The position numbers were made by a program, and so were the translations under genes. Below, in pieces: positions 15,440 to 64,000 of a stretch of 64,000 nucleotides of DNA. The notes under the pieces were generated by a model. The model saw only the letters and a program-made list of their open reading frames with translations, was not told the origin of the DNA and made no database searches. Location: contig NC_134847.1 in assembly GCF_965363235.1 (NCBI RefSeq), positions 69,974,935-70,038,934 on the forward strand. The letters are read 5' to 3'. This stretch comes from Mytilus galloprovincialis (lineage: Eukaryota). Position 1 is the stretch's first letter; each line of letters starts with the position of its first letter.

Positions 15440-15495
15440 TTTTTATACGACCGCAAAATTTGAAAAATTTTTCGTCGTATATTGCTATCACGTTG

Positions 15496-15533
<38 letters not shown>

Positions 15534-22959: not shown

Positions 22960-23275
22960 TATATTATTTAGTTAATAAGATATCTTATTTAGTTTTAAAG
23001 ATATCTTATTAAGTTTATAAGATATCTTTATAAGAAACTATATAAAAGATATCTTATATAGTTTATAAGATATTTTATAAACTTAATGAGATATCTTTTA
23101 AACTAAATAAGATATCTTATATGTTAAATAAGATATCTTGATAACAAGTTTTAATAAGATATCTTATTTATTTATCAAGATATCTCTATTAATTTATAAG
23201 ATATCTATTAATTTATAAGATATCTTATTTAATTATAAAGATATCTGATTTAACTTTCTACGATATCTTGAAAGT
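22960..23275. repeat. Array of the AAGATATCTT-core unit, about 17 copies
   Basis: Direct reading; unit phase about 19-21 bp, the same orientation of the unit+spacer as block 21040-21245. Confidence 0.8.
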
Positions 23276-24206: not shown

Positions 24207-25976
24207 GTAATATAATTTCAATATTGATGTTCCCGTCATAGTGGAGGGGAAATTAAGTTATAACCTTGTCCGTCTGTACATCTGTATGTTCTTAATTTGG
24301 TTTCTATTCTCTAACTTTAGTTTGCCTCAACCAAATGTTATGAAACTTAAACAAAATGTTAAATTACAGTCGACTGTTTTAATTGCATAATTCGTTGAAT
24401 TGCATACTTTTCTCCTGCACAAAGCCATTTCCTATTCATCTAATGTTAAATTGTCCAGTTATATGCATAGCCTTACAAGTGGCCTTTTGGTTAATTGCAT
24501 AGAAAATATTCACCAGCTAGATATGCTTAGTTAAAACTGACAAGATTTTTGATCGGAAACGTCATTTTGGTAAGTATATTTTTCTTGAATGCATCATAAT
24601 TTTCGTTATTATTTCATGTTTTCCTTTGTGTTGTTTAAATAAAGTTTTAAAACAGTTTCTTTCGTGTTCATATGATTATTAAAAAAGCCCATGTTCTATT
24701 TTAAGGTCATAAAAATGTTAACAGGTGATTGTGGTAAAAAACAAGACCATCCTATCTCAAAAGGTGTTAATTATTGATTGGATTTCATACATTGTTCATA
24801 GATTACATTTGGGTGAATTTTAAAAACAATAACCCCTGCTAATTATTGATCATTATCCCACGTGGATCATGTGTACTGTCATAATTTGGCTTGGGGCGAT
24901 CTACACATATGTTTAATATTACAGCCTATAGGGCATTTATATATGGTTGAAGAATTTTTATACATCAATCTTTAATTTAATATTTTTTTTAAAGAACATT
25001 AACTTCTAATTATTCTATTTTCTCACTTTCAACACTCATGTTCATCAAATAACCCATGCAGGGCCCCATTACCCGTTAACTGCTTTGCATATACGAAACT
25101 AACGTGGTTAGAGAAACAGTATTACATCACTGTGCAAGTGTTTAATACTGCAAATCAAAGGCAGTCCAGTACACATTCATTATTATTAGCTCACCTGGCC
25201 CTTCTAAGTGAGCTTTTCTCATCACTTTGCGTCCATTGTCGTCCATTTGTTGTCTTTAACTTTTACAAAAATCTTCTCCTCTGACACTACTGGGCAAAAT
25301 TTCACCAAACTTGGCCTTAATCATCACTAGGGGTATCTTTTACAAAATGTGTCCAGTGACCCAGCCCACCAACCAAGATGGCCGCCATGGCTAAAAATAA
25401 AACATAGGAGTAAAATGTAGATTTTGGCTTATATCTCTGAAACCAAAGCATTTAAAGCAAATCTGACATGGGGTTGAAATTGTTTATCAGATCAAGATCT
25501 ATCTGCCCTCAAATTTTCAGACAAATCAGACAACCAGTTGTTAGGTTGCTCTCAGACAGCCCCCAAAATATTAATTTTAAGGAAATTTTGCAGTTTTTGG
25601 TTATTATCTTGAATACTATTATAGATAGAGATAAACTGTAAACAGCAATAATTTTCAGTAAAGTAAGATCTACAAATATGTCAACATGACCAAAATGGTC
25701 AGTTGAACCCTTAAGGAGTTATTGCCCTTTATAGTCAATTTTTAACAATTTTCATTAATTTGGTAAATTTTTGTAAATTTTTACAAAATAATTTCCTCTG
25801 TTACTAATGGGCAAAGTTTTTTGTTTCTATTCTCTTACTTTAGTTTGCCTCATCCAAATGTTATGAAACTGCTACACAATACTTTCGACCACAAAACATA
25901 GTTAAAGTTTGAATTTTGGTGGCGTCAATTCTACTGTTCTAGGAATCTGCCCTTAACAAATTAAAAAATTGCTGAT

Positions 25977-27961
25977 TTTTATACGACCGCAAATTTTGAA
26001 AAAATTTTCGTCGTATATTGCTATCACGTTGGCGTCGGCGTCGTCGTCGTCATCCGGCGTCCGAATACTTTTAGTTTTCGCACTCTAACTTTAGTAAAAG
26101 TGAATGGAAATCTATGAAATTTTAACACAAGGTTTATGACCACAAAAGGAAGGTTGGTATTGATTTTGGGAGTTTTGGTCCCAACATTTTAGGAATTAGG
26201 GGCCAAAAAGGGCCCAAATAAGCATTTTCTTGGTTTTCGCACTATAACTTTAGTTTAAGTTAATAGAAATCTATGAAATTTTGACACAAGGTTTATGACC
26301 ACAAAAGAACGGTTGGGATTGATTTTGGGAGTTTTGGTCTCAACAGTTTAGGAATTAGGGGCCAAAAAAGGGCCCAAATAAGCATTATTCTTGGTTTTCG
26401 CACAATAACATTAGTTTAAGTAAGTAGAAATCAATGAAATTTAAACACAATGTTAATGACTACAAAAGGAAGGTTGGTATTGATTTTGGGAGTTTAGGTC
26501 CCAACAGTTTAGGAATTAGGGGCCAAAAAGGGACCCAAATAAGCATTTTTCTTGGTTTTCGCACCATAACGTTAGTATAAGTAAATAGAAATCTATGAAA
26601 TTTAAACACAAGGTTTATGACCATAAAAGAAAGGTTGGGTTTGATTTTGGGAGTTTTGGTCCCAACATAATAAGGGGCCCAAAGGGTCCAAAATTAAACT
26701 TTTGTTTGATTTCATCAAAATTGAATAATTGGGGTTCTTTGATATGCTGAATCTAACTGTCATGACTGTGTATGTAGATTCTTAACTTTTGGTCCCGTTT
26801 TCAAATTGGTCTACATTAAGGTCCAAAGGGTCCAAAATTAAACTTAGTTTGATTTTGACAAAAAATGAATCAGTTAGGTTCTTTGATATGCTGAATCTAA
26901 AAATGTACTTAGATTCTTGATTATTGGCCCAGTTTTCAAGTTGGTCCAAATCGGGGTCCAAAATTAAACTTTGTTTGATTTCATCAAAAATTGAATAAAT
27001 GGGGTTCTTTGATATACCAAATCTAACTGTGTATGTAGATTCTTCATTTTTGGTCCTGTTTTCAAATTGGTCTACACTAAAGTCTAAAGGGTCCAAAATT
27101 AAACTTAGTCTGATTTTAACAAAAATTGAAATCTTGAAGTTCTTTGATATGCTGAATCCAAAAATGTACTTAGATTTTTTATTATGGGCCCAGTTTTCAA
27201 GTTGGTCCAAATCAGGATCTAAAATTATTATATTAAGTATTGTGCAATAGCAAGTCTTTTCAATTGCACAGTATTGCGCAATGGCAAGAAATATCTAATT
27301 GCACAATATTGTGAAATATCAAATTTTTTTTTAATTAGAGTTATCTTTCTTTGTCCAGAATAGTAAGCAAGAAATATCTAATTGCAAAATATTGTGCAAT
27401 AGCAAGATTTTTTTTTAATTGGAGTTATCTTTCTTTGTCCAGAATCAACTTAAATCTTTGTTATATACAATATACAATGTATATTCACTTTTTACTACCA
27501 ACTGATAAATTAAAATAATCTTTACCATTCAGTGATAACAAGCAGTTTTTTTACATCTTAATATTTTATGATGTATTTAAATGAGTAGTTATTGTTGCAA
27601 ACTCCATTAGAAATTTTAATTGAGATTAGTTTTGGAATAAGGGAAAGGGGGATGTGATTAAAAAAATTGGGTTCAATTTTTCTCATTTGAAATTTCATAA
27701 ATAAAAAAGAAAATTTCTTCAAACATTTTTTTGAGAGGATTAATATTCAACAGCATAGTGAATTGCTCTAAGAGAAACAAAAATTTTAAGTTCATTAGAA
27801 CACATTCATTCTGTGTCAGAAACCTATGCTGTGTCAACTATTTATTCACAATCCAAATTTAGAGCTGAATCCAGCTTGAATGTTGTGTCCATACTTGCCC
27901 TAACCGTTCAGGGTTCAACCTCTGCGGTCGTATAAAGCTACGCCCTGCGGAGCATCTGGTT
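25977..27961. mobile_element. About 2-kb composite non-autonomous element, copy B
   Basis: Collinear with 15440-17435 over its whole length, including the GTC microsatellite (shorter here) and all subrepeats. Flanked on both sides by copies of a roughly 130-bp local repeat (tctcttactttagtttgcctcaaccaaatgttatgaaac) at about 25830 and 27975, also at 24255 and 28195. Confidence 0.7.
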
Positions 27962-29655
27962 TTCATTTCCATTCCCTTACTTAAGTTTGCCTCAACTAAA
28001 TGTTATGAAACATATAAAAAATGCTTAAGTTCCAATTTTGGTGGCATCACTTATGCTTTTCTATAGTTATAGATATAAGAAGATGTGGTATGAGTGCCAA
28101 TGAGACAACTCTCCATCCAAGTCACATTTTGTAAAAGGAAACCATTTTATACCTCTTTACAAATGGAAAAGATGCTGATTTTTTTTGTTTCGTTCTCTTA
28201 CTTAAGTTTGTCTCAACTAAATGTTATAAAACATGCACACAATGTTTATTACCACAAAACTCAGATCAAGTACAAAGGAGTAGGTCCGTTAAGGGCCGAT
28301 TTCAAGTTCATCTAACGAAAGATATTAGACACTTTTTAAACACTCAAGTGTCTATTTCAATTGATTCAATTAGTTTATGTGAATGATTTTAACTGATTTA
28401 GTCATTAAAAACACTCCGATTCAAGCTTAAGGAGGCTCGCGGGTATAAGATTTTCAGAAAAAAATTAAACATTAATTTTTCATTACAAATTTTATTGATT
28501 ACCTTAAGTAGCTGTTACTTTATCATATGGTACAAAAATCATTCCAAAAAATCAATTCGTGTTGGCCCCAGCGGACTTTTAAACTGTAGATGCCATTGAA
28601 AAGCTTCAAATTATCTCCCTTTGGTGCAAAAAGCCATTTTTTGGCATAAAAATTGAAATATCTTTTTTAACTCATCGGTGACCTATATTTTTGGGATACG
28701 ATTGCTTTTAAGCAATCTGTAGACTTTTACCGTTTACTCGGGGCTCATTCCCTCACGTCAACCGTTTTATTCTAAACATTCAGCAACATCTCAGATTCTG
28801 ATGATTGTCTTGCTTTAAAAGGTAAAAACAAGCAAAAGGATTGAACATAAACAACTTTCCTGTAATGTTCTTCTCATAATCTTCATGTTTGATTTTTCCC
28901 TTGACTTATATGCGTGTTTTTAACAACACGGAAAATCAGAATTAAGCAGTATTTATATTTAGTGTTTTTATAAATTTAGAAACACGTCAGAGGGAATTCC
29001 TCAGTTTTGATAAATGCGAGAGTTCTTTGAATTCCGATAATCCTATTTCTGTCATATAAGAACTGAAGTGGAGTTTTCTATATTTTACCGTTATGAAACT
29101 GATACTGTACTCTCATAAAGAAATAAGAAATTGAGACTCATTCATCATATCATAAATTAAATAAACGTTCTTGTTCCAAATCGCGAGTCGTCGGTTTGTT
29201 TATGTATTAATGCGCATGTGTATAGTTTTCTTGATTTCAAGGGGTATCAGATTGAGTGGTTGTTCTGGATTCCCCGCTTATTAATTAATTTGAAACTCAT
29301 TGAATTCTTTCTATGTCTGCCTGCTATTGAGGGTTTAATAATGTTGTTGCATAATTTAAAATCATATGCATCATTTAAATTAAAATCAATGAAGTTTTAC
29401 CTATAACACCCCTTTAGCCGAAATGGAGTCTTCCATATTATCGTTTCGAGTTGTCTCCCTTTCAGAAGTATTTCCCGTCAAAATCTTCAAGAAAAAATTA
29501 ACTTGTCGATAAACGTCGTATTATATTAAGAACGATCTCAATTTAAACAGAGGAGTGTATATGGAAGGGTTCATGCCCACTGACCCAAAGGAAAAGATTT
29601 AGAAATGGGGTTCCTCCTAGAATTAACGGTGATAAGATACGAAGTGAATAGTCCG

Positions 29656-31579: not shown

Positions 31580-31875
31580 CTCTCAGTGACTGCTGTGGAA
31601 ATTAAACTTGGAATTGATAGCACACAAATAAAACACAATAAGTACATTGCTCGTACACTTGTATCCGGGATTAGCTATTTTTAAAGTTGAGTGACTATTC
31701 AGATTTATATTACCTTTGCATGTGCAGTTGAATTAGTTTTTGCGGTCATAAAACTTTCGAGTCAGTTTTTTTGTATTCACACTCGAAAATGAATCAATGA
31801 AATTGCTTGATTTCTTGTTTCGAGCATGATTTTTGTGCTCCAAGCACTGAGCAAAGTTTTATGCCTTCAAGGCCA

Positions 31876-32009
31876 TAGTCCAAATAATTATGACGTCTTG
31901 GAAGGCTATTATAATTTTTTTCTTTGAAGCCTTACTTCGACGTCGAAGTAAGGCGTCAACCAAAAATAATTATAATAGCCTTTCAAGACGTCATAGTTAT
32001 TTGGACAAT
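31876..32009. mobile_element. 134-bp palindromic MITE with 8-bp target-site duplication CAAGGCCA
   Basis: The arms tagtccaaataattatgacgtcttggaaggctattataatt and aattataatagcctttcaagacgtcatagttatttggacaat pair nearly perfectly. caaggcca sits at 31868-31875 and 32010-32017. It lies in a roughly 400-bp segment absent from copy 1 of the host repeat. Confidence 0.65.
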
Positions 32010-32889
32010 CAAGGCCAGGGCTGCCAAAAATGTGTGAGACTCACGCATGTTCATGCTTTTTTGCAGCAGTATCCTTGGATCAATTTTTTCCTCTTTGATC
32101 TTTTCTATTTTGGCCAAATCTCACGAATTTGCTTGGTGAAAAGTTGGCAGAACTGCTATACATGTGTCAATGAAAACTATATGGCAATCGTATCCCTCAG
32201 AGCATTCTGCTCTTTGATTTATTGTAGTTTTCGAATAAGCTGTACATAGACTAAATAATAGTAAAATTTTAACGATTTCTGTAATTTAGTTATTTTTTTA
32301 TTTCGATATTGCCGCTATTTCTCCTATTAGTTCAACAGAAAAAAGGGACATTAACAAAAATGTATGCTCCTTTCGAAGGCAGATTGTGAGCGTAAATGAA
32401 CGGTGACCCCATTTTTTTATTTCATTTTTCTATTAAGTATAAGATAAAGTTCATTTATAGAAAAATATAGAGAAATCCTATATTAAATAAAAAATTTCAT
32501 TTAGACCCGCGAGCCCCCTTAAATATGAAAAATCTATAAAATATGCAAAAAAACGTCACTTTTTAGATGGTTTTTGTCAAAAATGAAAGTGGCTGCATCC
32601 GTGTTTATCCTCAACCTTTAAATATATTATGTATCATCATCAAATACAACTTACATTTCAATATTATGAATGAACAACAAAGCGACTACTTTCATTTAAG
32701 ATGGAAACCATCTAAAATTAAACTAAAATGCTAAAATTGTGAAGATTTCAGTAATTTAGCATGACTTAATGATGCTAGTACCCGATATATGTGCATTGTT
32801 TGGTCAAATACAGCCCATATTTATGTAGCAGAAGCATTCTACTTTCCAATAGATAGCTTAAAGATTACATTTTCACAATTTTATAAAAC

Positions 32890-45320: not shown

Positions 45321-46384
45321 TAAAATTAAAAAAACAAGATTAAGCTGGATACATTAGATGACATTATAATAGTGTGTTGTATTATAGTTTAGCTACCTTG
45401 GTTGAGTTGACTATGGAATAATATATAAAATTCCTAGATGCAACCAGAAAAAAAATAATGAATTAGCGAATCTGAAAATTTACATTACTTTAATGCTATA
45501 GTTTTTGATGGTGATGTATCGTTTAAAACAGTTAAAGTATGACTTTAAGAAGAAGCGTGCATTTGAAAAGGAAAACACACCTAGTGGGCAACGCTTTCCA
45601 CGTTTTATACACTCAACACCCGACTAAAAGTCTCAAGGAATTCAAAGATGAGAAGATACATGGTTAATTCTACGAACCCGAAATTCAGAAGACAGCCTAA
45701 GACGTGAACTGCATTTAAAAGATCTAGCGAAAGCTATACAGGAACATAGTCTGTATATTGGCATATAATATGTTTTTCCCTTTTACACCGACCCACGGAA
45801 TCCGCGATCGCCTATGTAAATTCCATCCCGAAGTATCAGCTAGGAATTCTACACCAAATGAAGTTTATACCCTCAGTATATTTTTTTGGATCAAACAATC
45901 AGACTACAGTTAAAACAACTCATCAAGCTGATTTGTCTTAACCGTTCGATAAGACTACTAGTATGAAGGTTACTTAGACGTTGAACAGCAATCCATCATT
46001 AGATCATGCTTTGTCTGAATTGATAAACGGTTATATGAGTCTTATGTAGACGAAACGCGCGTCTGGCGTACTAAATTAAAATCCTGGTACCTTTGATAAC
46101 TATTTACACCACTGGGTCGATGCCACTGCTGGTGGACGTTTCGTCCCCGAGGGTATCACCAGCCCAGTTGTCAACACTTAGGTGAAGAAATGAATATCAA
46201 TAATGTGGTCATTTATTTTTATAAATTTCCTGTTTACAAAACTTTGAATTTTTCGAAAAACTAAAGATTTTCCTATCCCAGGCAAAGATTACCTTAGCCG
46301 TATTTGGCACAACTTTTTGGAATTTTGGATCCTCAATGCTCTTCAACTTTGTACTTGTTTGGCCTTATAAATTCTTTGATATGA

Positions 46385-46430
46385 GCGTCACTGATGAGTC
46401 TTATGTAGACGAAACGCGCGTCTGGCGTAC
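46385..46430 (+). ncRNA. Type-I hammerhead ribozyme (complete core), unit 2 of the array
   Basis: CUGAUGA at 46391-46397; helix II GUC-UUAUGUA-GAC; GAAAC at 46411-46415; helix III ACGC-GCGUCUG-GCGU; cleavage after GUA at about 46429. Confidence 0.65.
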
Positions 46431-46743
46431 TAAATTAAAATCCTGGTACCTTTGATAACTATTTACACCACTGGGTCGATGCCACTGCTGGTGGACGTTT
46501 CGTCCCCGAGGGTATCACCAGCCCAGTAGTCAACACTTAGGTGTTGAAATGAATATCAATAATGTGGTCATTTATTTTTATAAATTTCCAGTTTACAAAA
46601 CTTTGAATTTTTCGAAAAACTAAGGATTTTCTTATCCCAGGCATAGATTACCTTAGCCGTATTTGGCACAAATTTTTGGAATTTTGGATCCTCAATGCTC
46701 TTCAACTTTGTACTTGTTTGGCTTTACAAATACTTTAATATGA

Positions 46744-46790
46744 GCGTCACTGATGAGTCTTATGTAGACGAAACGCGCGTCTGGCGTACT
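46744..46790 (+). ncRNA. Type-I hammerhead ribozyme (complete core), unit 3 of the array
   Basis: Identical motif; CUGAUGA at 46750-46756 and GAAAC at 46770-46774. Confidence 0.65.
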
Positions 46791-46935
46791 AAATTAAAAT
46801 CCTGGTACCTTTGATAACTATATACGTCTTGATCTCGCAGCAGTATGTCTCTATTCAAGACAAAATATTGTCCAGGTTTTTATGCTGTTCTTTCAATTTC
46901 TTATTCGCTTGTCTCTTCAGATTTTTCTTGCATGT

Positions 46936-47247
46936 TTACATCAGCTCTTGCCAATTCTTTGGAAACTAGCCTTTCGTCACCAGCTAATCAGCTACTTTCC
47001 TTCGGAAAGTTTACGAATATAATGGTTGTACACATTTCGTTTCATCATCCACACTGGCCCTGTGAGCTGTCAAATTGATGAAGCAAGTGATTACATCAGC
47101 TCTTGCCAATTCTTTGGAAACTAGCCTTTCGTCACCAGCTAATCAGCTACTTTCCTTCGGAAAGTTTACGAATATAATGGTTGTACACATTTCGTTTCAT
47201 CATCCACACTGGCCCTGTGAGCTGTCAAATTGATGAAGCAAGTGATT
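46936..47247. repeat. 157-bp tandem duplication (x2)
   Basis: acatcagctcttgccaattctttggaaactagcctttcgtcaccagctaatcagctactttccttcggaaagtttacgaatataatggttgtacacatttcgtttcatcatccacactggccctgtgagctgtcaaattgatgaagcaagtgatt is repeated exactly. Confidence 0.85.
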
Positions 47248-52935: not shown

Positions 52936-53971
52936 TGCAATTAATTCTGTATTTTATTTGTGTTTTGAAAGACACGAACACACATGTATTGCATTTATTT
53001 TCGATTTGAAATCAATACAGTAACCACACCTTCAGCTGAAGACGGGTTCGCAAAAAAAGAATCTCGAATGGTCAACAATAATACATCGCTCAAGGTGAAT
53101 ACTTATCTATTTAACATAACAACAAATTTCAACAGTAAAAACAAATAACCAACTTAAAAATTGAAACAGGAGTGTACGAGTTGTCCTATGCTTCAGACTC
53201 GACATTCACTAAACATGCATGCTGAAATTGACATGGTTGTTACCGTATGACCATGGTCATTACCGTATGACCATGGTCATACGGTCTGATTAGTCAGAGG
53301 CTAAACGTCAGGTTCGGGTAAATCTGTTAACGATATTTCTGTTATTTCATTGGTTATAAATACTGCTTCGCGGCTGTTTCCGGAATGATTTTTGGGGAAA
53401 TGAAGGTCTTTTTAACGTCTGATTGGCTATTAATGAGTGGCATGCATTATATGTTCAACGCGTCCGTAAGTGGGGTCGGATTGAAATCATGATACTAGGT
53501 TATATGTATATATTATGATAAAGTGTTCATTTGCTATAGTGATTAGTTATGATGATAACTCACGACAAACTGTCAATTTGGTGCAGATTATATAATCATG
53601 TGACAATGTGGTGATTTAATCTTGTAATTATGTTGCTATTTTGTTAAGAAACTGTACATTTATGTATTATTGCTATTCTCTAAAAATAGAACAGTAATGC
53701 GTATAATTTACACTTTAAACTGCGTATTAAAACGGTTAAATGATTGAGATCGACGAGCATTGAGATACTTTTGTGTTAGATTTCTTCGTAAGCTTAGATT
53801 TTTTAAAAATAGTAAATACATAAAACGTATGCTCTATGTATAAAAATAATAACCATTTATTTTTCATTGCTTGGACATATTGATTAGAAAATATTAGAAT
53901 CACGGAATTTACCGAAGATGTAATTTCGTTTCCAGCATTCATCGCTTCATTGATTTCTGATGTAAATAAGG

Positions 53972-56900
53972 GTTACACTAATGACTGGACCGAATGACAG
54001 GACCGAATGACAGGACCAAATGAAAAATGCTAATAACTTTTTCATTTCGCAAAGGATTGATCTCAAATTTGAAATATAATAAGATTTCATCATTTGATAA
54101 ATAGATTTAAGAAAAAAATTAAAAAGTTTTGTAAGAAACTTTAGAAAACGTGACATGACCAACTCTGATAATGACAGGACCAACATCGAGAATGACAGGA
54201 CCAAATCAAATTGCTAATAACTTTTTTGTTTTTCAAACGAATTATTTCAGATTTGAAATATAAAATGGATGTCATATTTTGAAACCAAATTGTTATAAAA
54301 ATTATAGATTTATTTTCAAAAACTTTCGAAAAGGTGGCATGACCATCGCTGATTGACATGATCAACCTCGACAATGACAGGACCAGATGAAATTGCTAAT
54401 TTCTCTTTTATTTCTCAAAATATTTTTCTGAAATTTGAAATATAATAAGATTTCATCATTTATCAAATAAATTTAAAAAAAAAATACACAAAAAATATGT
54501 AAGAAACTTTAGAAAACGTGACATTACCAACTCTGATAATGACAGGACCAACTTCGACAATAACAGGACCAAATAAAAATGCTAATTTCTTTTTTATTTT
54601 TCAAAAGAATTATCTCAGATTTGAAACATAAAATGATATGTCACATTTTGAAACATTTATGTTATAAAAAATAAAGATTTATTTTCAAAAACTTTCAAAA
54701 TCGTGACATGATCCCATCGCTGACTGACATGACCAACCTCGACAATGACCTGAACAAATAAATTGCTAATAATTCTTTTATTTCGCAGAATATTTCTCTG
54801 AAAATTAAAATATGTGAAGATTATACCATTTTATACATAAATATAAGAAAAAGGTATAAAAGCTTGCTGAAATGTGAACTGTTAACGTTGTCAATAACAG
54901 GACAATCCTCGACAATTAATGACAGGACCAAATAAAAATGCTAATTATGCATAACATTTGACAGAATATTTGAAATAATGACAATTAAGACCATTTTGCA
55001 CATCATATAAGAAAAATATAGAAAAAAAAACGTATTGAAAGCTTGCGGTTGTGTGACCTGACCAACATCGGCTATGATCTGGCCAATGATTTTACTGAAA
55101 TTGTTCAATTCTGATCCATAATTAGTAAGATATATCTTATAAATTCAGGAAAATATATTCTATGGTGGTTAAAATTCTTGACCTAGCTACTAAACATGCT
55201 AAACGTATGTTGGCAGAGAGTCACAGGACATGCAGAGTCACAGGACAAAAAGACACGAATGATCACTATATTTAAGAAATATTTATATGTAATTACATTT
55301 AAGAGATTGTTCATTAAACTATAGATAAATTCAGATTTATTGAATTGTCATCATAATATTTCTTGACATCATGAAGCCCAATTTAAGCCACTTTGAAAAG
55401 GTATCAAACCTTTTAAAGTAGTCCGTGAAAATGTTTGATTCAGTATATTTTATGAAAATATTTAAAACTACCAAGAAAACATGCATGCAAGGGTCGGGCA
55501 TACTTCAAGAAATGTTTTTTTGTTTATTTATTATGAGGGGGAAAAAACTATCAAGATATACCCTGCATATACTCAAGCATACATGGAAATAATTATTTAA
55601 TGTTCTGAAAATATTTAATAAAACAACGACATGAACTATTATGTGATTTTAATTACTGTCATCACAATCTTTATTGGATTTATCAACTTATTTATGGCTT
55701 ATGTCACACCTTTTGTTTGTTACCTTATAATTGTTTTCAGACGTGTCAGATTATGTCCGGTAATTAATATACAAAATAATCTGAATGAATGAATGAATGA
55801 TCTTTATTCTCAACCCAAATACATAGTTAAGAGTTAAGATATAGCATGTGTGAAATATCAATTAATATGATAAATATTTACACCAAAGATAAATAAAGTT
55901 TGCTTTTTCCCTTATTTTCTAAAAACTTATAAATCATTCAATCTTAATGTGTTTTTTTTTAATTATTATTATTAATTTCAACCAGGATTTCTATAGTAGG
56001 AACTATGGTCATTTCACGTTTTCGTAATAAAAAAAAAATCTAGATTTTTTTCTTTAATTGATGTTTTAAAAGATGAGATCACATTTTATTTTAAATCTGA
56101 CATAATTCCTTTTCAAAATTAAAAAGTGAATAGCATTTGTATTTGGTCCTGTCCTTGTCAAGGTTTGTCCTGTCATTGTCAGTGTTGGTCAGGTCACATT
56201 ACAGCAAGCTTTTAATATTTTTTTCCCTACATTATTCCTATTTTTATGTATAAAATGGTTAAATCTGACTATATCTCAAGTTTCAGAAAAATATTTTTTA
56301 GAAATAAAAAGTAATTAGCAATTTCATCTGGTCCTGTCAGTCAGCGATGGTCATGTCACGTTTAAACTTTCTATATTTTTTATAACATTTATTTTTTTCA
56401 AAATATGACATATTATTTTATATTTCAAATCTGAGAGAATTCCTTAAAAAAAAAGAGTTATTAGCATTTTACTTTGGTCCTGTCATTGTCGATGTTGGTC
56501 ATGGTCATGTCACGTTTTCTAAAGTTTCTTACAATTTTTTTTAATTTTTTTTCTTAAATCTATTTATCAAATGATAAAATCTTATTATATATCAAATTTC
56601 AGAAAAATATTTTGAGAAATAAAAGAAATTAGCAATTTCATCTGGTCCAGTCATTGTCGAGGTTGGTCCTGTCAATCAGCGATGGTCATGTCACGTTTTC
56701 GAAAGTTTTTGAAAATAAATCTATAATTTTTATAACATTTTGGTTTCAAAATATGACATACCATTTTACATTTCAAATCTGAAATAATTCCTTTGAAAAA
56801 CAAAAAAGTTATTAGCATTTTTATTTGGTCCTGTCATTCTCGATGTTGGTCCTGTCATTATCAAAGTTGGTCATGTCACATTTTCTAAAGTTTCTTACAA

Positions 56901-57057
56901 AACTTTTTAATTTTTTTCTTAAATCTATTTATCAATTGATGAAATCTTATTATATTTCAAATTTGAGATCAATCCTTTGAGAAATGAAAAAGTTATTAGC
57001 ATTTTTCATTTGGTCCTGTCATTCGGTCCTGTCATTCGGTCCAGTCATTAGTGTAAC
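53972..57057. mobile_element. Foldback-type element (about 3.1 kb): about 1.1-kb and 0.9-kb inverted arms built from roughly 190-bp tandem subrepeats, about 1.1-kb spacer, no ORF
   Basis: Left terminus gttacactaatgactggaccgaatgacaggaccgaatgacaggaccaaatgaaaaatgctaataac; right terminus agcatttttcatttggtcctgtcattcggtcctgtcattcggtccagtcattagtgtaac (its reverse complement). Arm 1 at about 53972-55070 and arm 2 at about 56150-57057 carry gacaggacc / ggtcctgtc motifs every roughly 190 bp. Confidence 0.75.
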
Positions 57058-57757
57058 AGTGAGGAACAACCGGACGTGGAGGAAGGTGGACGTGTTTTCT
57101 GAGCTGACCTATTCTGTCGCCTACACTTACCCGCACCCACTTAGTAGTTGATTGTGTCATTACTCAAACACTAGTGCAAGTATTTGACAATTTATTGTCA
57201 TTTAATAGCGGTTTTAGCAGAAAATTCATTGCGAGTGAAGGACAGGTAACATAGCGTCACCCAGCGCCATCTTGAAAAAATTTCAAAACTTTCAAAGCAA
57301 AGGTGTTAAGTCTATACTTCACCTGAAATTAGTCTCTCCTTTCCCGGGAAACACAAGAACAATGTGTTGCTGATGTTTACTGAATTTTTAATTAACTTTT
57401 AACGAACTTTTAGTGTCCATTATTTTATCCAAATCGAGTAGTTTGAAAATGATCAGTATTCTTGTGTAGTTTCACAGTCTGTGTACTCGTTCTCATTCTT
57501 CATTTTACCTTTTATCGCTTGATAAATTTTTTAGATTTTATTGTATGTAGTAAGGTTTTTCATTTTACCTTTTAAAACACTTGAATTAAATTTTAAGCCA
57601 GTACTTTTAAGTTTGTGTTACTATAAAGTGTTTTATAATCAGTTTTTAATTTTTAAACTGTCCTTGATGTAGCACATGTTAGCAGATAAGTTATTTTTGC
57701 TCAAAATATTTTTGTGTAAATCTATTACCACACTCATTAAATTCTTTGTTTGGTAAA

Positions 57758-59770
57758 ATGGAAATTGCCAGAAGAAGAAGTGACCGAGTTAAAGGCAAGA
57801 AAGTAATGTTTACTCCCTGTAAAACTGTATCTAATACTGCAACAAAAAACAAGAAGTCTAATAGTAATAGTAGTATTAATGAAAAAACTGTTGATTATGA
57901 ATTAAATAAAAGAAAGGCTGTTAGCAAGAAGCTTGATGCTGCCGAACGGTTGTATACAGTAAAAACTGAAATAAGTCCAGGTAATCTGGTCCTTATCTTC
58001 TCTGCTGCTGCTTATGAAGAATTCAAAGTTATAACACAGTCAGTTGTAAACAACACTGGTCTGCAGATAAATAAGACTGAGACTAAGGATAAATTAGGTG
58101 CCATTGTATCTGAATCACTGGCGATCCATAATGGAAGCACAAAATTATTTGTTTTGAACTTTTTTAATACCACAACAAAAGTCCTTTTGAATGGCAACCA
58201 ATCATATATAAAGGAATTTATAACCACTGCTCTCGGGGACATATTGTGTATTCTTGACCGTAACTCCAAATTTAGTCTTATAAACAATCAAATCAGAGAA
58301 TATTGTAAAATGTTTTTAGATAACACGCAACAAAGTAATCTGGACACAGCAAGTAAAGATGAGCAAGGGGTACAAATTTTAAGTAAGAAGTCAATGGTTA
58401 GTTCTAAACAACAGACAGTGGGGACCTGTTCTAATATTAAGTCAAAAACTATTCAAAGTGACATCTTATGTCCAACATGTAAGAAAGTCTGTGGAAATGA
58501 CTCAAAGGCAGTAGAGTGTGACATATGTAATGTATGGGTCCATTATAGCTGTGAAAAACTTGGTCTAAGTGACATTCATGTAATTGAAAATGACTTAACA
58601 GCAGAGTATATCTGTATAAGCTGCAAACAGTTGAGAGCCTTGCAGGCTGATTGTGTAGCAGGAGGGTCTATCTCTGATAATAGTAATGACTCAAATAAGG
58701 GGGAAGAAATGCCAAGATCGTCCCTCTCAAGTGCTGATATTAACCCCATGGCTCGGGGGTCGGTTGTTTCTGGTGTTACTATAATACATAAAGACAATAG
58801 ACTGTTTTCTAATAATAATTCCACAAATGATGAGGATATAAATAAGGACAATTCAAGAAGTGATAGCTCCTATAGTTCCGTACAAATGGGTTCAAACATT
58901 TTAAAAGAAGAAATAATCTCTCTAAAATTAGAAATTACTCATAAAGATAAAGGAATCAAGCAAAAGGACAGTCAAATTTATAAGTTACAAACAGAAGTGT
59001 CCACTCAGAAAAAAGAGCTTGCAGCAAGTAGAGCGTATGCTATAAAACTGGAAAATGACATTAGGGATTTAGAACACTCTTTGTTAATTCAAAAACAAAA
59101 ACAAAGTTCAAGCGTGAATGCGGACTTTAACAGGCAAAGTCCTTTTAGTGATAATAGTAATAAATCCGAATCAGAAAACTTAAAAAGTTGGTTTTTTGAA
59201 CAGAGGATGAGGCAAATGGAATTGGAAATTTGTAAACAAGATAATAAAATAAGTAATCTAAGTGATAAACTGTTGGACTTGAGATTTGACAACAATAATC
59301 AATCAACACGGTCTCGACAAAGGCAAAATAGAGGGAGGCAAAATAATGCTAATAAGTACAGTAGAAACGAAAGGTCTCAATTTGATAGACATAGTGAAAA
59401 CAAGCACTGTAAATTTCAGAATGATTTTGCAGATTTTAGTGGGGGTATGTCATTTCGGCACGATGAATCCCAACCCAATAGTCTTCACATTGATAATAGT
59501 GGTAGTGAAAATGAGACCAATTCTGTGGTTAATGGTCAAACAAACAATAGTGATAATTTTTTAGGGAATATTCATTCCAGGGGGAAATCAAAATGTCAAA
59601 CACAAGCAAGGAAAAGATTTCACGAGAAATCGGAGCAAATATATATACCCCCAAGAAAGCAAATGAAACAAGTACCGCCGAGGTTCCAACGTCTTCAACA
59701 GGAAAAGTTGGGTTGCACACAGAGAGACAATTTAATGATGCCCACATTGGGTCAATCCACAAAAATGTAG
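57758..59770 (+). CDS. LINE ORF1: PHD-type zinc finger (CPTCKKVCGNDSKAVECDICNVWVHYSCEKL...CISC) plus coiled-coil protein
   Basis: First ATG at 57758 (the ORF-track start at 57746 is TTG). Cys/His spacing typical of a PHD finger. Heptad-rich LKLEITHKDKGIKQKDSQIYKLQTEVSTQKKELAASRAYAIKLENDIRDLEH. Confidence 0.7.
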   Translation: MEIARRRSDRVKGKKVMFTPCKTVSNTATKNKKSNSNSSINEKTVDYELNKRKAVSKKLDAAERLYTVKTEISPGNLVLIFSAAAYEEFKVITQSVVNNTGLQINKTETKDKLGAIVSESLAIHNGSTKLFVLNFFNTTTKVLLNGNQSYIKEFITTALGDILCILDRNSKFSLINNQIREYCKMFLDNTQQSNLDTASKDEQGVQILSKKSMVSSKQQTVGTCSNIKSKTIQSDILCPTCKKVCGNDSKAVECDICNVWVHYSCEKLGLSDIHVIENDLTAEYICISCKQLRALQADCVAGGSISDNSNDSNKGEEMPRSSLSSADINPMARGSVVSGVTIIHKDNRLFSNNNSTNDEDINKDNSRSDSSYSSVQMGSNILKEEIISLKLEITHKDKGIKQKDSQIYKLQTEVSTQKKELAASRAYAIKLENDIRDLEHSLLIQKQKQSSSVNADFNRQSPFSDNSNKSESENLKSWFFEQRMRQMELEICKQDNKISNLSDKLLDLRFDNNNQSTRSRQRQNRGRQNNANKYSRNERSQFDRHSENKHCKFQNDFADFSGGMSFRHDESQPNSLHIDNSGSENETNSVVNGQTNNSDNFLGNIHSRGKSKCQTQARKRFHEKSEQIYIPPRKQMKQVPPRFQRLQQEKLGCTQRDNLMMPTLGQSTKM

Positions 59771-62700
59771 GAAAGGATATACATGTACAAGAGCCTCATG
59801 ATAATGAAATAAGTATAGATAGCGTGCTGAACATTTTATCTTTTAACATTGAAGGTTTTTTATCTAATAATATGTATCTATCTATGCTAGAGAAAAGAGC
59901 TGATATAATTATGTTACAGGAACATTGGTTACATAATAGGGAAAAACAAGTTTTAGAGGAATTTTTAACTGACTTTTTATGTCTTGTAAAATGCTTTGAT
60001 GATGATAAGACAAATGACCCAACTGAAAGGAGGAGGGGGCATGCTGGGGTTGCAATTTGTGTTAACAAAAAATTACAAAATCTTGTTGAACTTTTACCGG
60101 ATGGATGTAATAGAGTAATAGCTATACGTCTCAACGTAAAACAGCCACTTGTGCTAATATGTGTCTATATGCCAACTAGAGGTGGAAATATCACTATTGA
60201 AGATTTTAAAACTGTACTAGATGAGCTAAGTGAAATGATAGAAAAATATCTGCCTACTTCTGACATAATTATAGGAGGTGACATGAATGCCTCACTGCAT
60301 AGAAATGAGCGTAAAATACCTCGTGACATTGTCTTTGATGAATTCTTAAAATCTAATGGTCTGTCAATACCTTCCACTTGCAAAACGCAGAGTACGTTTT
60401 TTCACTTCAATAACAGAGATGAATCTCAAATTGACTATTTTGTAGAAACTAGTGCAATGGTCAAGAAATATTTGTCATTTAATCGTGAATTTCAAAATCT
60501 ATCCATTCATGATCCAATTATGATTTCAATTAACTGTTGTATTGAAAGGATGGATATTAGCACTAGCGATCCTAGACCTTTACGTATAAAATGGGATAAA
60601 ATTGATAAACAAAAATATGAAAATTTACTTCAAGAGAGATTAACTGAATTTAGTGATGTGGCTGTGGTTGAAACTGCTGAAAATATAGAGAACATTTTAA
60701 CAAAATTTTCTGACATTATTGTGACTACTGCTGAAAGTCTATGCCCAAAAAGGAAAAAGAAATTTAAGAGGAAAAGGGACTGGACCCCAGAAATGACTGA
60801 AATTGTTAAGGAGGGTAAATTTTACTATTGGAAATGGAAAAATGAAGGTAATAAAGATAATAAATCTAGCATTAACTATATTCGAATGAAAGTGCAAAAG
60901 AAAAAACTTCGTTCTGCCCAAAGACGATTGGCTGCTGAGAAAAGAGAAAATACGTATACCAAAATTATGGAATTAAATGAGAATAATGATAAACAATTTT
61001 TCGCATTAGTAAATAAGCAGAGAAATGCAAGGTCATCCACAACTTCAATTTTGAAGGTTAACAATAGACTGTATAATAATTCAGCCTCTATTCTGGGAGC
61101 TTGGGCTGAATACTTTGAAGATTTGGCCTCGCCATCTGTGCAAGATAGATTCGATAGTAAATTTTTCAATTTGGTTAATAATGACATTGAAATATTAACT
61201 GATATTTTCTTAAGTACAAGAGAACCGATTCAGGAAGTGACTGAGTACGAATTGAATAAATGTATTTTATCTTTTAAAAATGGAAAAGCTCCAGATGTTG
61301 ATAAATTCACCATAGAACACTTGAAATATGGAGGACAGACAGTTGTAAATATACTAACTAAATTGATAAACTTGATTTTTAAAACTGTTGCTGTCCCAAA
61401 TAATTTAAAAATAGGGATAGGATGCCCTCTGTTTAAAAATGGAGGAAAACCAAAAGAAGATCCAAATTCATATAGACGTATAACTATAACTAGTGCTATT
61501 GGAAAAACTATAGAAAAGCTACATTTATCCCGTAACAAAAGCTCTATTAAAAATCAGCAAAGTAGATTACAAAAAGGGTTCACTGAAGGGGAATCCCCTA
61601 CTGTAGCGGGGCTGGTTGTAACTGAACTAAGAATAGAAGCTAAAGAAAAACGTTTACCCATATATATTGGATTAACTGATGCTAAAAAAGCGTTTGATAT
61701 AGTATGGCATGCTGGCCTATTTAGAGAAATGCATAAAATGAACATATCTGGAGATAATTGGTTATTATTTAGGGCATGGTATGAAGACTTAACTACAAAA
61801 GTAAAATGGGAAGGAAATTATTCACGTGGGTTTAAAGAAAAACAAGGCGTCCGTCAAGGAGGTGTTTGGTCTCCAACTGCGTATAAAGTTTTTATTAACT
61901 CTTTACTGAAAATTTATGAGGAAAACAAAATTGGGTCGTACATAGGTTCAATATACTGTGGTGCTCCAACTGTAGCAGACGATGTTACATTGATAGCTAA
62001 TGATCCATATGAACTACAAACTATGATTAATATTCAAATGGACCATGCAAATAAATTTAGATATTCGATTAGTGAACAGAAATCCTGTGTATTGAAAATA
62101 GGAGACAAGTCAGAACATTCCTGGTATATGAACGACCAAAAGTTAAATACACCAATTAATGCTACCCACTTAGGAATAAAAAGGGACATAAATTCTAAAT
62201 TTGGAGTTAAAGAAGTTGTACCAGATAGAATACAAACTGCTCGTAAAACAGTATATGCATTGATGGGCGCTGGTCTCTATGGCCTGAATGGGATAAATCC
62301 GAAGGTCTCAGTTCACATGATAAAGTGCTTTGTCATTCCGAGGCTACTGTATGGCCTGGATATTATTCGATTAACAAAAACTGATATAGCAAAACTATCT
62401 GTTTATTATATACAATTGTTGAAACAAATCCAGCATCTGCCGTCACGCACTGCGAATTCTGCTGTTTTAGTCCTGACTGGTCAGCTTCCTATAGAATCTG
62501 AAATCCACAAAAAAATGCTTTCCCTATTTCGTAACATTGCAGATAATCACGGGTCAGTTGAACGCAGTATCGCTCAAAGACAGCTTGCTTTGAAAACAAG
62601 AGACTCTGAAAGCTGGTTTATTCAAATTATAAAATTAACAGAAATGTATGAATTGCCATCTCCTATAGAGGTACTGGATCTAGTCCCAGAAAAGCATATT

Positions 62701-63243
62701 TGGAAAAAATTGGTTTATAACGCAGTGAATGACTATTGGAAAAACATTTTAATTCTTGAAGCTAGGACAAAAGTATCTATGAAAATGTTAAATGTTGATA
62801 ACTTTAAAGTTGGTGTAGTTCATAATATCTGGGAGAGTAGTGGTTCAGAACTTTTATCCGTTAAAAGAGCATGTGTCAAAGCCAAAATATTAAGTGGGAC
62901 TTACACTCTTCAAGCTGATCGAGCAAAATTTAATGGAAATAGAACAAGTTCTTTATGCCCTCTGTGTTTTAAACAATCTGAAGACTTAATGCACTTTCTT
63001 ATAAAATGTAACTCTTTGGAAGGAGTGAGAAGGAAATTCATTATGCTACTAAGAAATCTACTAAATGATAAGATAAATGCTCTTCTTGTGGATGATTTAT
63101 TTAACTTTGAAGATAATCTATTACAATTAATAGTGGACTGTACAAAATTCCAGTTTTTAAAACAATTATGGACAACTATTGAGCGCCTGTCAAGCAGCTT
63201 ATGTTTTGGTCTACATCAGAAGAGAACTAGCTTGTTACTATAA
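59593..63243 (+). CDS. LINE ORF2: AP-endonuclease (EEP) domain, reverse transcriptase, C-terminal Cys-rich motif
   Basis: N-terminal LSFNIEGF..IIMLQEHW..GGDMNA. RT motifs FKNGGKPKEDPNSYRRITITSAIGK, LTDAKKAFD, GVRQGGVWSPTAYKVFIN, APTVADDVTLIA. C-terminal CPLCFKQSEDLMHFLIKC. Overlaps ORF1 by 178 nt in another frame. Confidence 0.8.
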   Translation: MSNTSKEKISREIGANIYTPKKANETSTAEVPTSSTGKVGLHTERQFNDAHIGSIHKNVGKDIHVQEPHDNEISIDSVLNILSFNIEGFLSNNMYLSMLEKRADIIMLQEHWLHNREKQVLEEFLTDFLCLVKCFDDDKTNDPTERRRGHAGVAICVNKKLQNLVELLPDGCNRVIAIRLNVKQPLVLICVYMPTRGGNITIEDFKTVLDELSEMIEKYLPTSDIIIGGDMNASLHRNERKIPRDIVFDEFLKSNGLSIPSTCKTQSTFFHFNNRDESQIDYFVETSAMVKKYLSFNREFQNLSIHDPIMISINCCIERMDISTSDPRPLRIKWDKIDKQKYENLLQERLTEFSDVAVVETAENIENILTKFSDIIVTTAESLCPKRKKKFKRKRDWTPEMTEIVKEGKFYYWKWKNEGNKDNKSSINYIRMKVQKKKLRSAQRRLAAEKRENTYTKIMELNENNDKQFFALVNKQRNARSSTTSILKVNNRLYNNSASILGAWAEYFEDLASPSVQDRFDSKFFNLVNNDIEILTDIFLSTREPIQEVTEYELNKCILSFKNGKAPDVDKFTIEHLKYGGQTVVNILTKLINLIFKTVAVPNNLKIGIGCPLFKNGGKPKEDPNSYRRITITSAIGKTIEKLHLSRNKSSIKNQQSRLQKGFTEGESPTVAGLVVTELRIEAKEKRLPIYIGLTDAKKAFDIVWHAGLFREMHKMNISGDNWLLFRAWYEDLTTKVKWEGNYSRGFKEKQGVRQGGVWSPTAYKVFINSLLKIYEENKIGSYIGSIYCGAPTVADDVTLIANDPYELQTMINIQMDHANKFRYSISEQKSCVLKIGDKSEHSWYMNDQKLNTPINATHLGIKRDINSKFGVKEVVPDRIQTARKTVYALMGAGLYGLNGINPKVSVHMIKCFVIPRLLYGLDIIRLTKTDIAKLSVYYIQLLKQIQHLPSRTANSAVLVLTGQLPIESEIHKKMLSLFRNIADNHGSVERSIAQRQLALKTRDSESWFIQIIKLTEMYELPSPIEVLDLVPEKHIWKKLVYNAVNDYWKNILILEARTKVSMKMLNVDNFKVGVVHNIWESSGSELLSVKRACVKAKILSGTYTLQADRAKFNGNRTSSLCPLCFKQSEDLMHFLIKCNSLEGVRRKFIMLLRNLLNDKINALLVDDLFNFEDNLLQLIVDCTKFQFLKQLWTTIERLSSSLCFGLHQKRTSLLL

Positions 63244-64000
63244 AGACTGTTCATATAGTTTTCCAAGTTAAAGAGACATATATAGTGAAATTTATTTTTT
63301 GAGTGTGGTATAGATGATAATGATAAGCAAAGATTTAAACTGATTGTTAAAGTTAGGTGGTCTTTTTAACGCTTATATGATAGGTGATAACTTTACATAT
63401 TATTTTTAGATTTTAAATGTTTATTTGTCGCTAAGTTTTAAGTACAAATAACAATGTAATGGTTCATTACCTTAAGTTTAAGAATAAACTACTCTGTAAT
63501 GAGGCTCTTTGGTTAGGGGTATATACTAGGTATAAGTGTAAGGGTTAGGACTTACAGTTTGCATTTGATGAGTATGTTTAAGTATAAGGAATGTGAATTA
63601 GACATTTGCTGAGCTGAGCAAGTTTCACAGTCTATGTGCTTGGTGGATAGATGTGATGTATATATATTCTTCCGATGAGGAGAGAGACTCAAGTGAGATA
63701 AAGGACAAAATAACAATGGATGAATCTATCAAGTTTTAGATTTTAAAATATGACTGTATATACAGTTTGAATACTTTTAAATAAGTGTGGTGGCGGTGTA
63801 TATAAGTGTATAAAGAAGATGTTTTTAATCCAATAGTGAATATAAGGGATTCTACACTTCAAGAGGATATTCCAACTGAAGTGGTTCATCTGATAAAGGT
63901 GGAAAGTACAGAATAGGTAACAGGTAACAGGTAACCCTGTAAATAAACAAACCCGACGATACTTATTATATTATAGAAGAATACAAAAATTACAAGGTGA

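Follow-up and report, generated by a model that had tools for sequence, protein, structure and literature searches.

A probable LINE insertion within the right terminal inverted repeat of a foldback-type element in Mytilus galloprovincialis

Foldback elements are recognized by long terminal inverted repeats built from tandem repeats, a middle domain, the lack of ORFs, and target-site duplications of 8–10 bp (PMC4079207). Most have been assigned to Mutator, and the class is a structural one drawn from more than one superfamily, with Galileo placed in the P superfamily (PMC4079207); hence, structural likeness to a foldback element does not give the superfamily. In Drosophila, such elements are known to give rise to satellite arrays and rearrangements (PMC4079207). 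Bivalves harbor another group of non-autonomous elements with satellite-like repeats of ~160–190 bp, which includes pearl/CvE, MgE (from Mytilus galloprovincialis), DTC84 and Cg_HINE (PMC7492417). Among LINEs, ORF1 proteins containing a PHD finger have been described in the CR1 and L2 lineages (PMC4120745). In the searchable literature, we found no described foldback element of Mytilus or of bivalves, and no Mytilus satellitome.

We analyzed a 64,000-nt stretch of the M. galloprovincialis genome (contig NC_134847.1), hereafter the window. An earlier note on this DNA had described an intact foldback element at 53972–57057, directly abutting the 5' end of a full-length LINE. Our data indicate that the region is, with high probability, a non-autonomous foldback-type DNA transposon with a LINE nested in its right terminal inverted repeat. 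Rather than abutting the element, the LINE sits inside this repeat, 2 bp from its end. Coordinates of all features are collected in Table 1.

Table 1. Features of the foldback-type element, the LINE and the flanking duplication (positions in the window)
Feature	Position	Strand	Description and basis
Left target-site duplication, 9 bp	53961..53969	+	TGTAAATAA; read directly; identical to 63938-63946
Left arm	53970..54943	+	Begins GGGTTACACTAATGACTGGACC; gapped alignment to reverse complement of right arm; L007 match
Terminal 13-bp repeats, left tip	53980..54023	+	AATGACAGGACCG x3.4; TRF, motif scan; candidate transposase-binding sites
184-bp subrepeat array, 368-bp A/B higher-order unit	54006..54852	+	TRF; repeat families D1, D4, D10
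Degenerate subrepeat-like sequence	54943 to ~55090		Beyond left arm
Middle (loop) domain	55091..56005	.	Non-repetitive, non-coding; boundaries approximate; no arm complementarity
Degenerate subrepeats of right arm	from ~56006
Right arm	56131..57057	-	Ends ...CATTAGTGTAAC; without its last two bases
13-bp tip repeats of right arm	57006-57049		TRF
Copy-specific 11-nt 5' extension of LINE	57058..57068	+	AGTGAGGAACA; other full-length copies start at 57069
Full-length LINE	57069..63935	+	96-99.65% DNA identity to nine Mytilus copies
LINE 5'UTR	57069-57757	+
LINE ORF1	57758-59770	+	670-674 aa; PHD finger, ORF1 residues 242-293 (Pfam)
LINE ORF2	59593-63243	+	1216 aa; Exo_endo_phos (APE) residues 82-283, RVT_1 residues 620-834 (Pfam)
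LINE tail after 3'UTR	63916-63935	+	(GGTAACA)2 + GGTAAC
Last two bases of right terminal inverted repeat	63936..63937	+	CC (completing GTGTAAC/CC); displaced by LINE
Right target-site duplication, 9 bp	63938..63946	+	TGTAAATAA; directly after CC

The foldback element is AT-rich, and its two arms are made largely of tandem subrepeats. In a gapped alignment (53970–54943 versus 57057–56131), the arms match over ~975 bp, with identity declining from 99% at the tips to ~75% inward. The outer 297 nt (53972–54268 versus 56761–57057) are 97% complementary, which confirms the inverted arms originally reported, of about 1 kb each, and the 20-nt terminus is present in the window only at the two ends of the element. 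When the arm array was analyzed by TRF, a period of 184 (73% matches) and a period of 368 (84% matches) were obtained, refining the earlier figure of roughly 190 bp for the tandem subrepeats and revealing a higher-order arrangement. Each subrepeat unit carries one or two copies of the motif TGACAGGACC/TGACATGACC, and 21 bp separates the motifs where they are paired. With one mismatch allowed, the recurring motif AATGACAGGACC occurs 20 times in the window (0.12 expected), and all of these occurrences lie within the foldback element. The 184/368-bp periods are present in both arms, and both tips additionally carry 3.4 copies of the 13-bp repeat, itself a version of this motif.

As the earlier note had held, the element has no coding capacity. 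Its longest ORF (85 aa) falls within the repeats and has no Pfam match, ORFs of the middle domain are no longer than 55 aa and have no Pfam match above threshold, and no homologue was found in a collection of 5.8 billion proteins. A scan for Rfam families and tRNA in the element also found none.

To assess folding, we restored the element in silico by removing the LINE, which gives a length of 3,090 bp. The restored element is predicted to form one hairpin, in which nt 1 pairs with nt 3090 and nt 2 with nt 3089, with 861 inter-arm pairs overall and a folding energy of -870.6 kcal/mol, compared to about -240 to -280 kcal/mol for shuffled sequences. One arm folded alone showed no unusual structure (z = -1.9); the structure of the restored element lies between the arms. 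These predictions are in line with the potential for a cruciform or hairpin that had been proposed for this locus.

The left end of the element is set by a second copy of the family, found in a metagenome contig (L007:1706–2218) and 96.3% identical to the window over 513 bp. L007 matches both arms at ~96%. Its homology begins at GGGTTACAC; the two sequences part exactly before GGG, and the flank of L007 there is an unrelated, decayed LINE ORF2. The contig is mussel-like, as shown by a further repeat in it that resembles window positions 31875–32012 at 87–92% identity. By this comparison the true left end is at 53970 and reads GGGTTACAC, and the GG at 53970–53971 belongs to the element. These two bases are complementary to the CC at 63936–63937, on the far side of the LINE. 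The right terminus, GTGTAACCC, as deduced from inverted-repeat symmetry plus these two bases, is split: GTGTAAC runs up to 57057, the 6.9-kb LINE follows, and CC comes after it. The element is thus not intact in its present form, and it extends slightly past the ends first assigned to it, by 2 bp on each side. This description of the family is drawn from one complete copy, that of the window, and one further end, that of L007, the latter being the one dispersed copy seen with the same terminus in a different flank.

The sequence beyond the CC also supports this right end. After the LINE tail, the order is CC and then TGTAAATAA, which matches perfectly the 9 bp lying just before the left end. 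On the two strands of the window together, the 9-mer is found at only 5 sites and the 11-mer CCTGTAAATAA at a single one; chance would give 0.11 occurrences of the 11-mer over the 128,000 positions, and ~5e-6 at the few positions allowed beside the LINE end. We take TGTAAATAA as the target-site duplication of the foldback element, a duplication known from one insertion only. The foldback architecture that had been recognized here holds up: the element has long terminal inverted repeats built of subrepeats, a non-repetitive middle and no ORF, and a 9-bp duplication and a second dispersed copy can now be added to it.

Further copies of the foldback family were sought in several ways. A blast search of nine other Mytilus loci (~210 kb) found none, the only hit being one weak match of 52 bp to the middle domain. 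A genome-contig scan with a 25-nt double motif, a viral-contig scan for foldback sequence, and a protein query with a 78-aa ORF of the terminal arm likewise gave no match. The 16-mer GGGTTACACTAATGAC has 39 bacterial matches, which we attribute to chance; none reaches the 22-nt terminus or holds AATGACAGGACC. No autonomous partner or transposase was found in the window or in the nine Mytilus loci. Within 10 kb there is no gene usable for an empty-site comparison; apart from the LINE ORFs, just one ORF has a Pfam match, an N-terminal fragment of actin (12216–12599) that lies 41 kb away.

The limits of the LINE were obtained from nine other copies, independently of the foldback element, and run from 57069 to ~63932–63935. 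In 7/7 other full-length copies, homology begins at window position 57069 (ACCGGACGTGGAGG), and the sequences upstream differ. The 5'UTR had been placed at 57058–57757, immediately after the foldback element. The full-length LINE is real, but the family consensus begins at 57069, and the preceding 11 nt are an extension specific to this copy. In other copies with a readable target duplication, ~7–13 nt lie between the duplication and the consensus start, and the duplications themselves are ~3–7 bp. A (GGTAACA)n tail is found in 10/10 copies, with a slight variant in L006 and L049. Given that other copies have up to 3.4 tail units, the final GGTAAC could be entirely LINE tail. Alternatively, the last 3–5 nt of the LINE (AAC to GTAAC) may not be tail, but foldback-terminus sequence duplicated as the LINE target. 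The PHD-containing ORF1, the APE/RT ORF2 and the (GGTAACA)n tail indicate that the LINE probably belongs to the CR1/L2 group. Copies from M. edulis, M. galloprovincialis and the window are >99% identical, and no exact record of the window ORF1 or ORF2 product was found in public assemblies.

Taken together, these observations suggest the following history. The foldback element would have inserted at TGTAAATAA, duplicating those 9 bp; before this insertion, the site would have read ...TTCTGATGTAAATAAACAAACCCGACG... / ...TGATGTAAATAAACAAACCC..., with a single TGTAAATAA. The AATGACAGGACC motifs and the tip repeats could provide multiple binding sites for a transposase supplied in trans. Later, the young LINE, with its ORFs intact, would have integrated between GTGTAAC and CC by target-primed reverse transcription. 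The insertion point and the LINE tail have a 5-nt microhomology, GTAAC. Base pairing is possible between GUAAC of the RNA tail and a bottom strand nicked to end in ...GGGTTAC-3', and this microhomology probably aided priming. The outcome at the LINE junction would be a target duplication of 3–5 bp, or none. As the right arm now lies 6.9 kb from its terminal bases, normal excision of the foldback element is probably disabled. Judged by sequence identity, the foldback family is older than the LINE, because the LINE is 99.4–99.65% identical to its closest copies, compared to 96–97% between foldback arms or foldback copies.

One alternative is that the LINE entered a foldback end elsewhere, and that the foldback transposase then moved the 9.97-kb composite to TGTAAATAA, using the recreated CC end GGTAACCC. 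The LINE tail plus CC does rebuild 7 nt of the terminus (GTAACCC), and the target duplication does flank the composite. This history requires one extra step, however, and it would put 6.9 kb between the right-hand arrays of binding sites and the end to be cleaved. The LINE is also very young (99.65% identical to L047), whereas foldback copies have diverged by 3–4%, and recent foldback mobility is not indicated. We therefore consider this scenario unlikely. A broader proposal, to which we give somewhat less credence still, is that the GTAAC match is recurrent, such that foldback ends act as repeated landing sites for this LINE family, or that, through the GGTAACCC end, the 10-kb composite can be mobilized by the foldback transposase. 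If the composite were mobile, a DNA transposon would carry an active LINE. Around the nine other LINE copies (seven of them full length; from M. trossulus, M. galloprovincialis and M. edulis), foldback-like sequence is absent for ~7–10 kb. Hence, no general association between the LINE and foldback elements is supported. These copies speak against a strong preference for foldback ends, and thus against the earlier idea that such ends are preferred LINE targets; the number of foldback right ends examined is one.

Could the foldback element nevertheless be intact at 53972–57057, with the LINE having landed immediately outside it? Ungapped complementarity of the inverted repeats does end at 53972 and 57057, and LINE-specific sequence does start directly after 57057. 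Yet there is no target duplication about 53972–57057 (left, ...AAATAAGG; right, AGTGAGG...), L007 puts the start of the element two bases further out, at GGG, and the complementary CC and the 9-bp duplicate are located past the LINE. These data make an intact neighbor very improbable.

Equally hard to sustain is a 5' transduction, or composite retrotransposition, in which a 10-kb RNA was transcribed at another locus, from the outer edge of a foldback element through a LINE downstream of it, and reverse-transcribed into TGTAAATAA. The 9-bp duplication would then be that of the LINE event. It does flank the composite, target duplications do arise at LINE insertions, and variable extra 5' nucleotides are seen among the copies of this LINE. 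Against this, transcription would have had to begin exactly at the first foldback base as set by L007, and the CC between LINE tail and duplication goes unexplained, while it is predicted if the LINE is nested. The readable duplications of other LINE copies are shorter than 9 bp, and the 11-nt extension marks a normal LINE 5' junction within the composite. Moreover, a hairpin RNA with a ~1-kb stem is a poor template for reverse transcription.

Least credible of all is a non-transposon origin from two opposed blocks of a 184-bp satellite, created by local inversion or palindromic duplication: the arms are tandem arrays whose identity decays inward, but the termini are sharp, carry a distinct 13-bp tip repeat and recur in L007 next to unrelated sequence, the element has a 9-bp target duplication, and neither the AATGACAGGACC motif nor the subrepeats are seen elsewhere in the 64-kb window or in the other Mytilus loci (~210 kb).

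The main value of nesting as the preferred reading is for annotation. The boundary between the two elements had been misread by 2 bp on each side, and its correction turns two neighbors into one element nested in another, with relative ages. This is an ordinary nested transposon, and nothing here would surprise a transposable-element specialist. A foldback-type family of Mytilus now has defined termini (GGGTTACAC...GTGTAACCC), a 9-bp duplication and a repeat-unit structure, and a young LINE family with intact ORFs has been identified in Mytilus. Mussel genomes show large structural polymorphism. Given that foldback elements seed satellites and rearrangements in Drosophila, surveying them for this family could be useful.

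How do the two elements compare with known systems? In its domains and tail, the LINE resembles members of the CR1/L2 group (Jockey superfamily), with an APE/RT ORF2, a PHD-containing ORF1, and a 3' tail of short repeats instead of poly(A). Particular to the Mytilus family are the GGTAACA tail unit and the variable 5' extension (~7–13 nt where delimited).

The foldback element differs in architecture from pearl, MgE and other MITE-like or Helentron-derived elements of bivalves, in which a lone central array, all in one orientation, lies between unique left and right modules and long terminal inverted repeats are lacking (PMC7492417). In the Mytilus element, by its two inverted arms, the repeats extend to the termini, which sets it apart from that architecture, and a 9-bp duplication flanks the element. 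With this duplication and with long terminal inverted repeats containing several internal motifs, it resembles non-autonomous Mutator (MuDR/FB) elements. A staggered cut of 9 bp suggests a Mutator-like enzyme. Duplication length is the one trait behind this superfamily assignment, and 9 bp lies within the 9–11 bp of Mutator, a trait not exclusive to that superfamily. Merlin elements also make target duplications of 8–9 bp. A GGG-type terminus is common among MULEs.

In structure, the element resembles known foldback elements: Drosophila FB, Tetris of D. virilis, Galileo/Kepler/Newton, TFB1 of Chironomus and TU of sea urchin. As in these, there are ~1-kb arms of subrepeats, a distinct outermost domain, a non-repetitive middle domain, no ORF and an AT-rich composition. 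The duplication of 9 bp is within the 8–10-bp range of the class, and the subrepeat of 184 bp compares with ~220 bp in Tetris (PMC4079207). Unlike the named elements, that of Mytilus resides in a bivalve, has a 368-bp A/B dimer and carries a LINE 2 bp from its end.

The tail of the LINE, which reads GGTAACA GGTAACA GGTAAC, is followed by CC and then by the 9-mer TGTAAATAA. An identical 9-mer lies to the left of the foldback element, separated from the GTTACAC... of the left arm by GG, and GG and CC together add two base pairs to the inverted repeat. The 11-mer CCTGTAAATAA has a single occurrence in the window, both strands counted (0.11 expected anywhere), and its chance expectation at the few positions permitted beside the independently defined LINE end is ∼5e-6. 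Because CC and the second 9-mer lie beyond the LINE, and GG and CC complete the inverted repeat, the LINE appears to sit inside the foldback element, 2 bp from its right end. The restored element would read GGGTTACAC...GTGTAAC[LINE]CC, 3,090 bp in length, with a 9-bp target-site duplication. The earlier note had placed an intact element at 53972-57057, directly abutting a full-length LINE. These data argue against all three points: GG and CC extend the ends, the right terminus is split, and the LINE lies within rather than beside the element. The useful outcome is a corrected anatomy, that of a foldback element carrying an ordinary nested LINE.

Features of the foldback element, the putatively nested LINE and other repeats (window positions unless a locus is named)
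Feature	Position	Detail
Left 9-mer	53961-53969	TGTAAATAA
GG	53970-53971	
Left arm	53970-54943	
Outer 297 nt of arms	53972-54268, 56761-57057	
Middle	roughly 55091-56005	∼0.9 kb
Right arm	57057-56131	reverse complement
LINE 5' extension	57058-57068	AGTGAGGAACA, 11 nt
LINE homology start	57069	ACCGGACGTGGAGG...
LINE ORF1	57746/57758-59770	670 aa from ATG
LINE ORF2	59593-63243	1216 aa
LINE tail	63916-63935	
LINE homology end	about 63932-63935	
CC	63936-63937	
Right 9-mer	63938-63946	TGTAAATAA
5' junction of another LINE copy	L001:7174-7183	
Interrupted LINE copies	L049:14597-21079, L048:10050-10530, L002:13710-14300	insertions of ∼6.5, ∼0.5 and ∼0.6 kb
Actin-like ORF	12216-12599 (+)	127 aa
Composite tandem-repeat block	15437-17435, 25964-27962	two ∼2-kb copies, 10.5 kb apart
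Same block, M. edulis	L006:19700-21674	80-90% identity
21-bp repeat clusters	21010-21260, 21725-21870, 22917-23250	GC 22-25%
359-bp unit	46035-47247 (with the 155-bp duplication)	x2.2, 96% identity
Match to 359-bp unit	L002:19920-20224	∼90%
Perfect 155-bp duplication	46936-47247	

The architecture is otherwise as the earlier note described it: inverted arms with tandem subrepeats and no coding capacity. Two inverted arms lie between 53970 and 57057 in an AT-rich window (GC ∼32%). By ungapped search their outer 297 nt are 97% complementary, and gapped alignment of the left arm with the reverse complement of the right gave 99% identity over the outermost 100 columns, declining to ∼75% further in. 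Tandem Repeats Finder identified arm periods of 184 bp (73% matches) and, at a higher order, 368 bp (84% matches), as well as a 13-bp repeat, AATGACAGGACCG x3.4, at each arm tip. Allowing ≤1 mismatch, AATGACAGGACC occurs 20 times, compared to 0.12 expected, always within the element; inside the repeat units it is often paired, 21 bp apart (repeat families D4 and D10). The 20-nt terminus is found only at the two ends, and the middle is non-repetitive. The longest ORF (85 aa) is located in the repeats. Six ORFs gave no Pfam match above threshold, an ORF from the arm had no homologue in a collection of 5.8 billion proteins, and the element contained no Rfam family or tRNA.

Under DNA energy parameters, one long hairpin is predicted for the restored strand of 3,090 nt, with nucleotide 1 paired to nucleotide 3090 and 861 inter-arm pairs. 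Its energy is −870.6 kcal/mol, versus −237 to −279 for five shuffles; a single arm folded alone is unremarkable (z = −1.9). Given this hairpin, formation of a cruciform or hairpin RNA, also raised in the earlier note, is physically plausible as a predicted potential.

ORF1 of the LINE encodes a PHD finger, and ORF2 an APE endonuclease and reverse transcriptase. PHD-containing ORF1s have been reported for the CR1 and L2 lineages (PMC4120745), so the LINE probably belongs to the CR1/L2 group. ORF2 shares 98% identity with a protein of Mytilus trossulus, and close relatives of it occur in M. edulis and M. galloprovincialis; these matches identify the window as Mytilus mussel DNA. We compared the LINE with nine other copies from M. 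trossulus, M. galloprovincialis and M. edulis assemblies (loci L001-L006 and L047-L049), which are 96-99.65% identical to it. Homology starts at the same position in all seven full-length copies, and sequences upstream of this point are unrelated between copies (L001, L004, L005 and L047 among them). Where a duplication can be read, ∼7-13 copy-specific nucleotides separate it from the consensus start. Several of these 5' extensions resemble the nearby internal sequence GTGGAGGAAGGTGGA (e.g. GGTGGAGGAAATC in L004 and that of the window), and they suggest that reverse transcription ended with template switching or with untemplated addition of nucleotides. The 3' tails consist of two to three and a half GGTAACA units per copy, with no poly(A), and readable target-site duplications are short (about 3-7 bp). 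Three of the copies elsewhere are themselves interrupted by insertions, showing that mobile elements often nest in one another in Mytilus.

When metagenome contigs were scanned with the double motif, a single one matched, L007 (ENA assembly ERZ887849, contig NODE-36660, 2,218 bp). Its stretch from L007:1706 to the contig end shows 96.3% identity to the left arm of the window, and 96.9% to the right arm when the latter is reverse-complemented and its CC restored. Similarity begins exactly at GGGTTACAC, upstream of which L007 reads ...AACAATATAT and the window ...TGTAAATAA. This shared start between different flanks shows that GG belongs to the element and that the family is dispersed with a fixed terminus. 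The flank, within L007:1-1705, is an ORF2 from another LINE family, decayed, with stop codons and frameshifts and 50% amino-acid identity; homology to it stops 22 nt before the foldback terminus. Here the foldback element inserted into a LINE, a nesting opposite to that of the window. Another L007 repeat matches window 31875-32012 at 87-92%, and hence this contig of a 'metagenome' assembly is mussel-like host DNA.

The LINE is 99.4-99.65% identical to its nearest copies, compared to 96-97% for foldback arms and foldback copies. The LINE is thus younger than the foldback copies, and the simplest order is LINE integration, by target-primed reverse transcription, into a resident foldback element. 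Since the LINE sense strand is the + strand, the bottom strand at the right junction would have served as primer for first-strand synthesis. With a nick to the left of GTAAC, this primer would end in ...GGGTTAC-3', able to base-pair with the GUAAC of the (GGUAACA)n tail of the RNA. The resulting LINE target duplication would measure 3-5 bp (AAC to GTAAC), and this reading would explain why the window tail is three bases longer than the usual ...AACAGGT end. Alternatively, GGTAAC may be entirely LINE tail, inserted without duplication. Either way, 6.9 kb now separate the right arm from its terminal bases, a distance that should hamper foldback excision.

Movement of the composite as a unit by the foldback transposase, after nesting, is conceivable but not favoured; it requires an extra step, and the relative ages do not speak for it. 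Had the LINE instead carried the foldback element by 5' transduction, transcription would need to begin precisely at the foldback element's first base and CC would be unexplained; moreover, within the composite the 11-nt extension is an ordinary 5' junction of the LINE. Three observations contradict an intact element with the LINE adjacent: L007 has the GGG terminus, CC and the duplication are located on the far side of the LINE, and no target-site duplication surrounds 53972-57057. Inverted satellite blocks are contradicted by defined termini common to L007 and the window, the 9-bp duplication, and the absence of the unit from the rest of the window and the other Mytilus loci. A preference of the LINE for foldback ends, which the earlier note had entertained, is unsupported: foldback-like sequence was found near none of the nine other LINE copies, within the 7-10 kb fetched on each side. 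A weak preference may exist, one foldback right end having been seen.

Other repeats occur in the window. Clusters of a 21-bp repeat built on the palindromic AAGATATCTT lie in very AT-rich DNA, where direct and inverted matches are numerous at spacings of about 1.7-2 kb, and this region (21000-23250) may represent a further transposon, from a different family, whose ends are built of repeats. The composite block, made of 161-bp and ∼262-bp tandem repeats, is a dispersed element with satellite-like arrays. The 155-bp duplication directly follows the 359-bp repeats. The C-terminal half of the 127-aa ORF corresponds to the N-terminal part of actin (75% identity to residues 5-64 of vertebrate beta-actin), and the N-terminus of the ORF is acidic and unrelated to actin. 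No further actin exons were found in the 64-kb window; the ORF may be a fragment, chimeric exon or pseudogene.

We infer that the foldback element is a non-autonomous cut-and-paste transposon, mobilised in trans; no transposase for it was found. The AATGACAGGACC repeats, densest at the tips and present in every subrepeat, are candidate multiple transposase-binding sites, by analogy with the tandem repeats of Galileo and Tetris, for which this role has been proposed (PMC4079207). The 9-bp duplication points to a Mutator-like enzyme, a length not exclusive to Mutator; most foldback elements have been assigned to that superfamily (PMC4079207). No report of a foldback element from Mytilus or any other bivalve turned up in the searchable literature. 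The bivalve elements pearl, MgE, DTC84 and Cg_HINE, which are tandem-repeat-bearing and MITE-like or Helentron-derived, have one central array in a single orientation, unlike the Mytilus element (PMC7492417). With foldback-type transposons, by contrast, it shares long terminal inverted repeats, tandem subrepeats, a middle domain, lack of an ORF, a duplication in the 8-10 bp class and dispersed copies. It thus has each structural foldback-type feature tested, which places it by structure rather than by superfamily.
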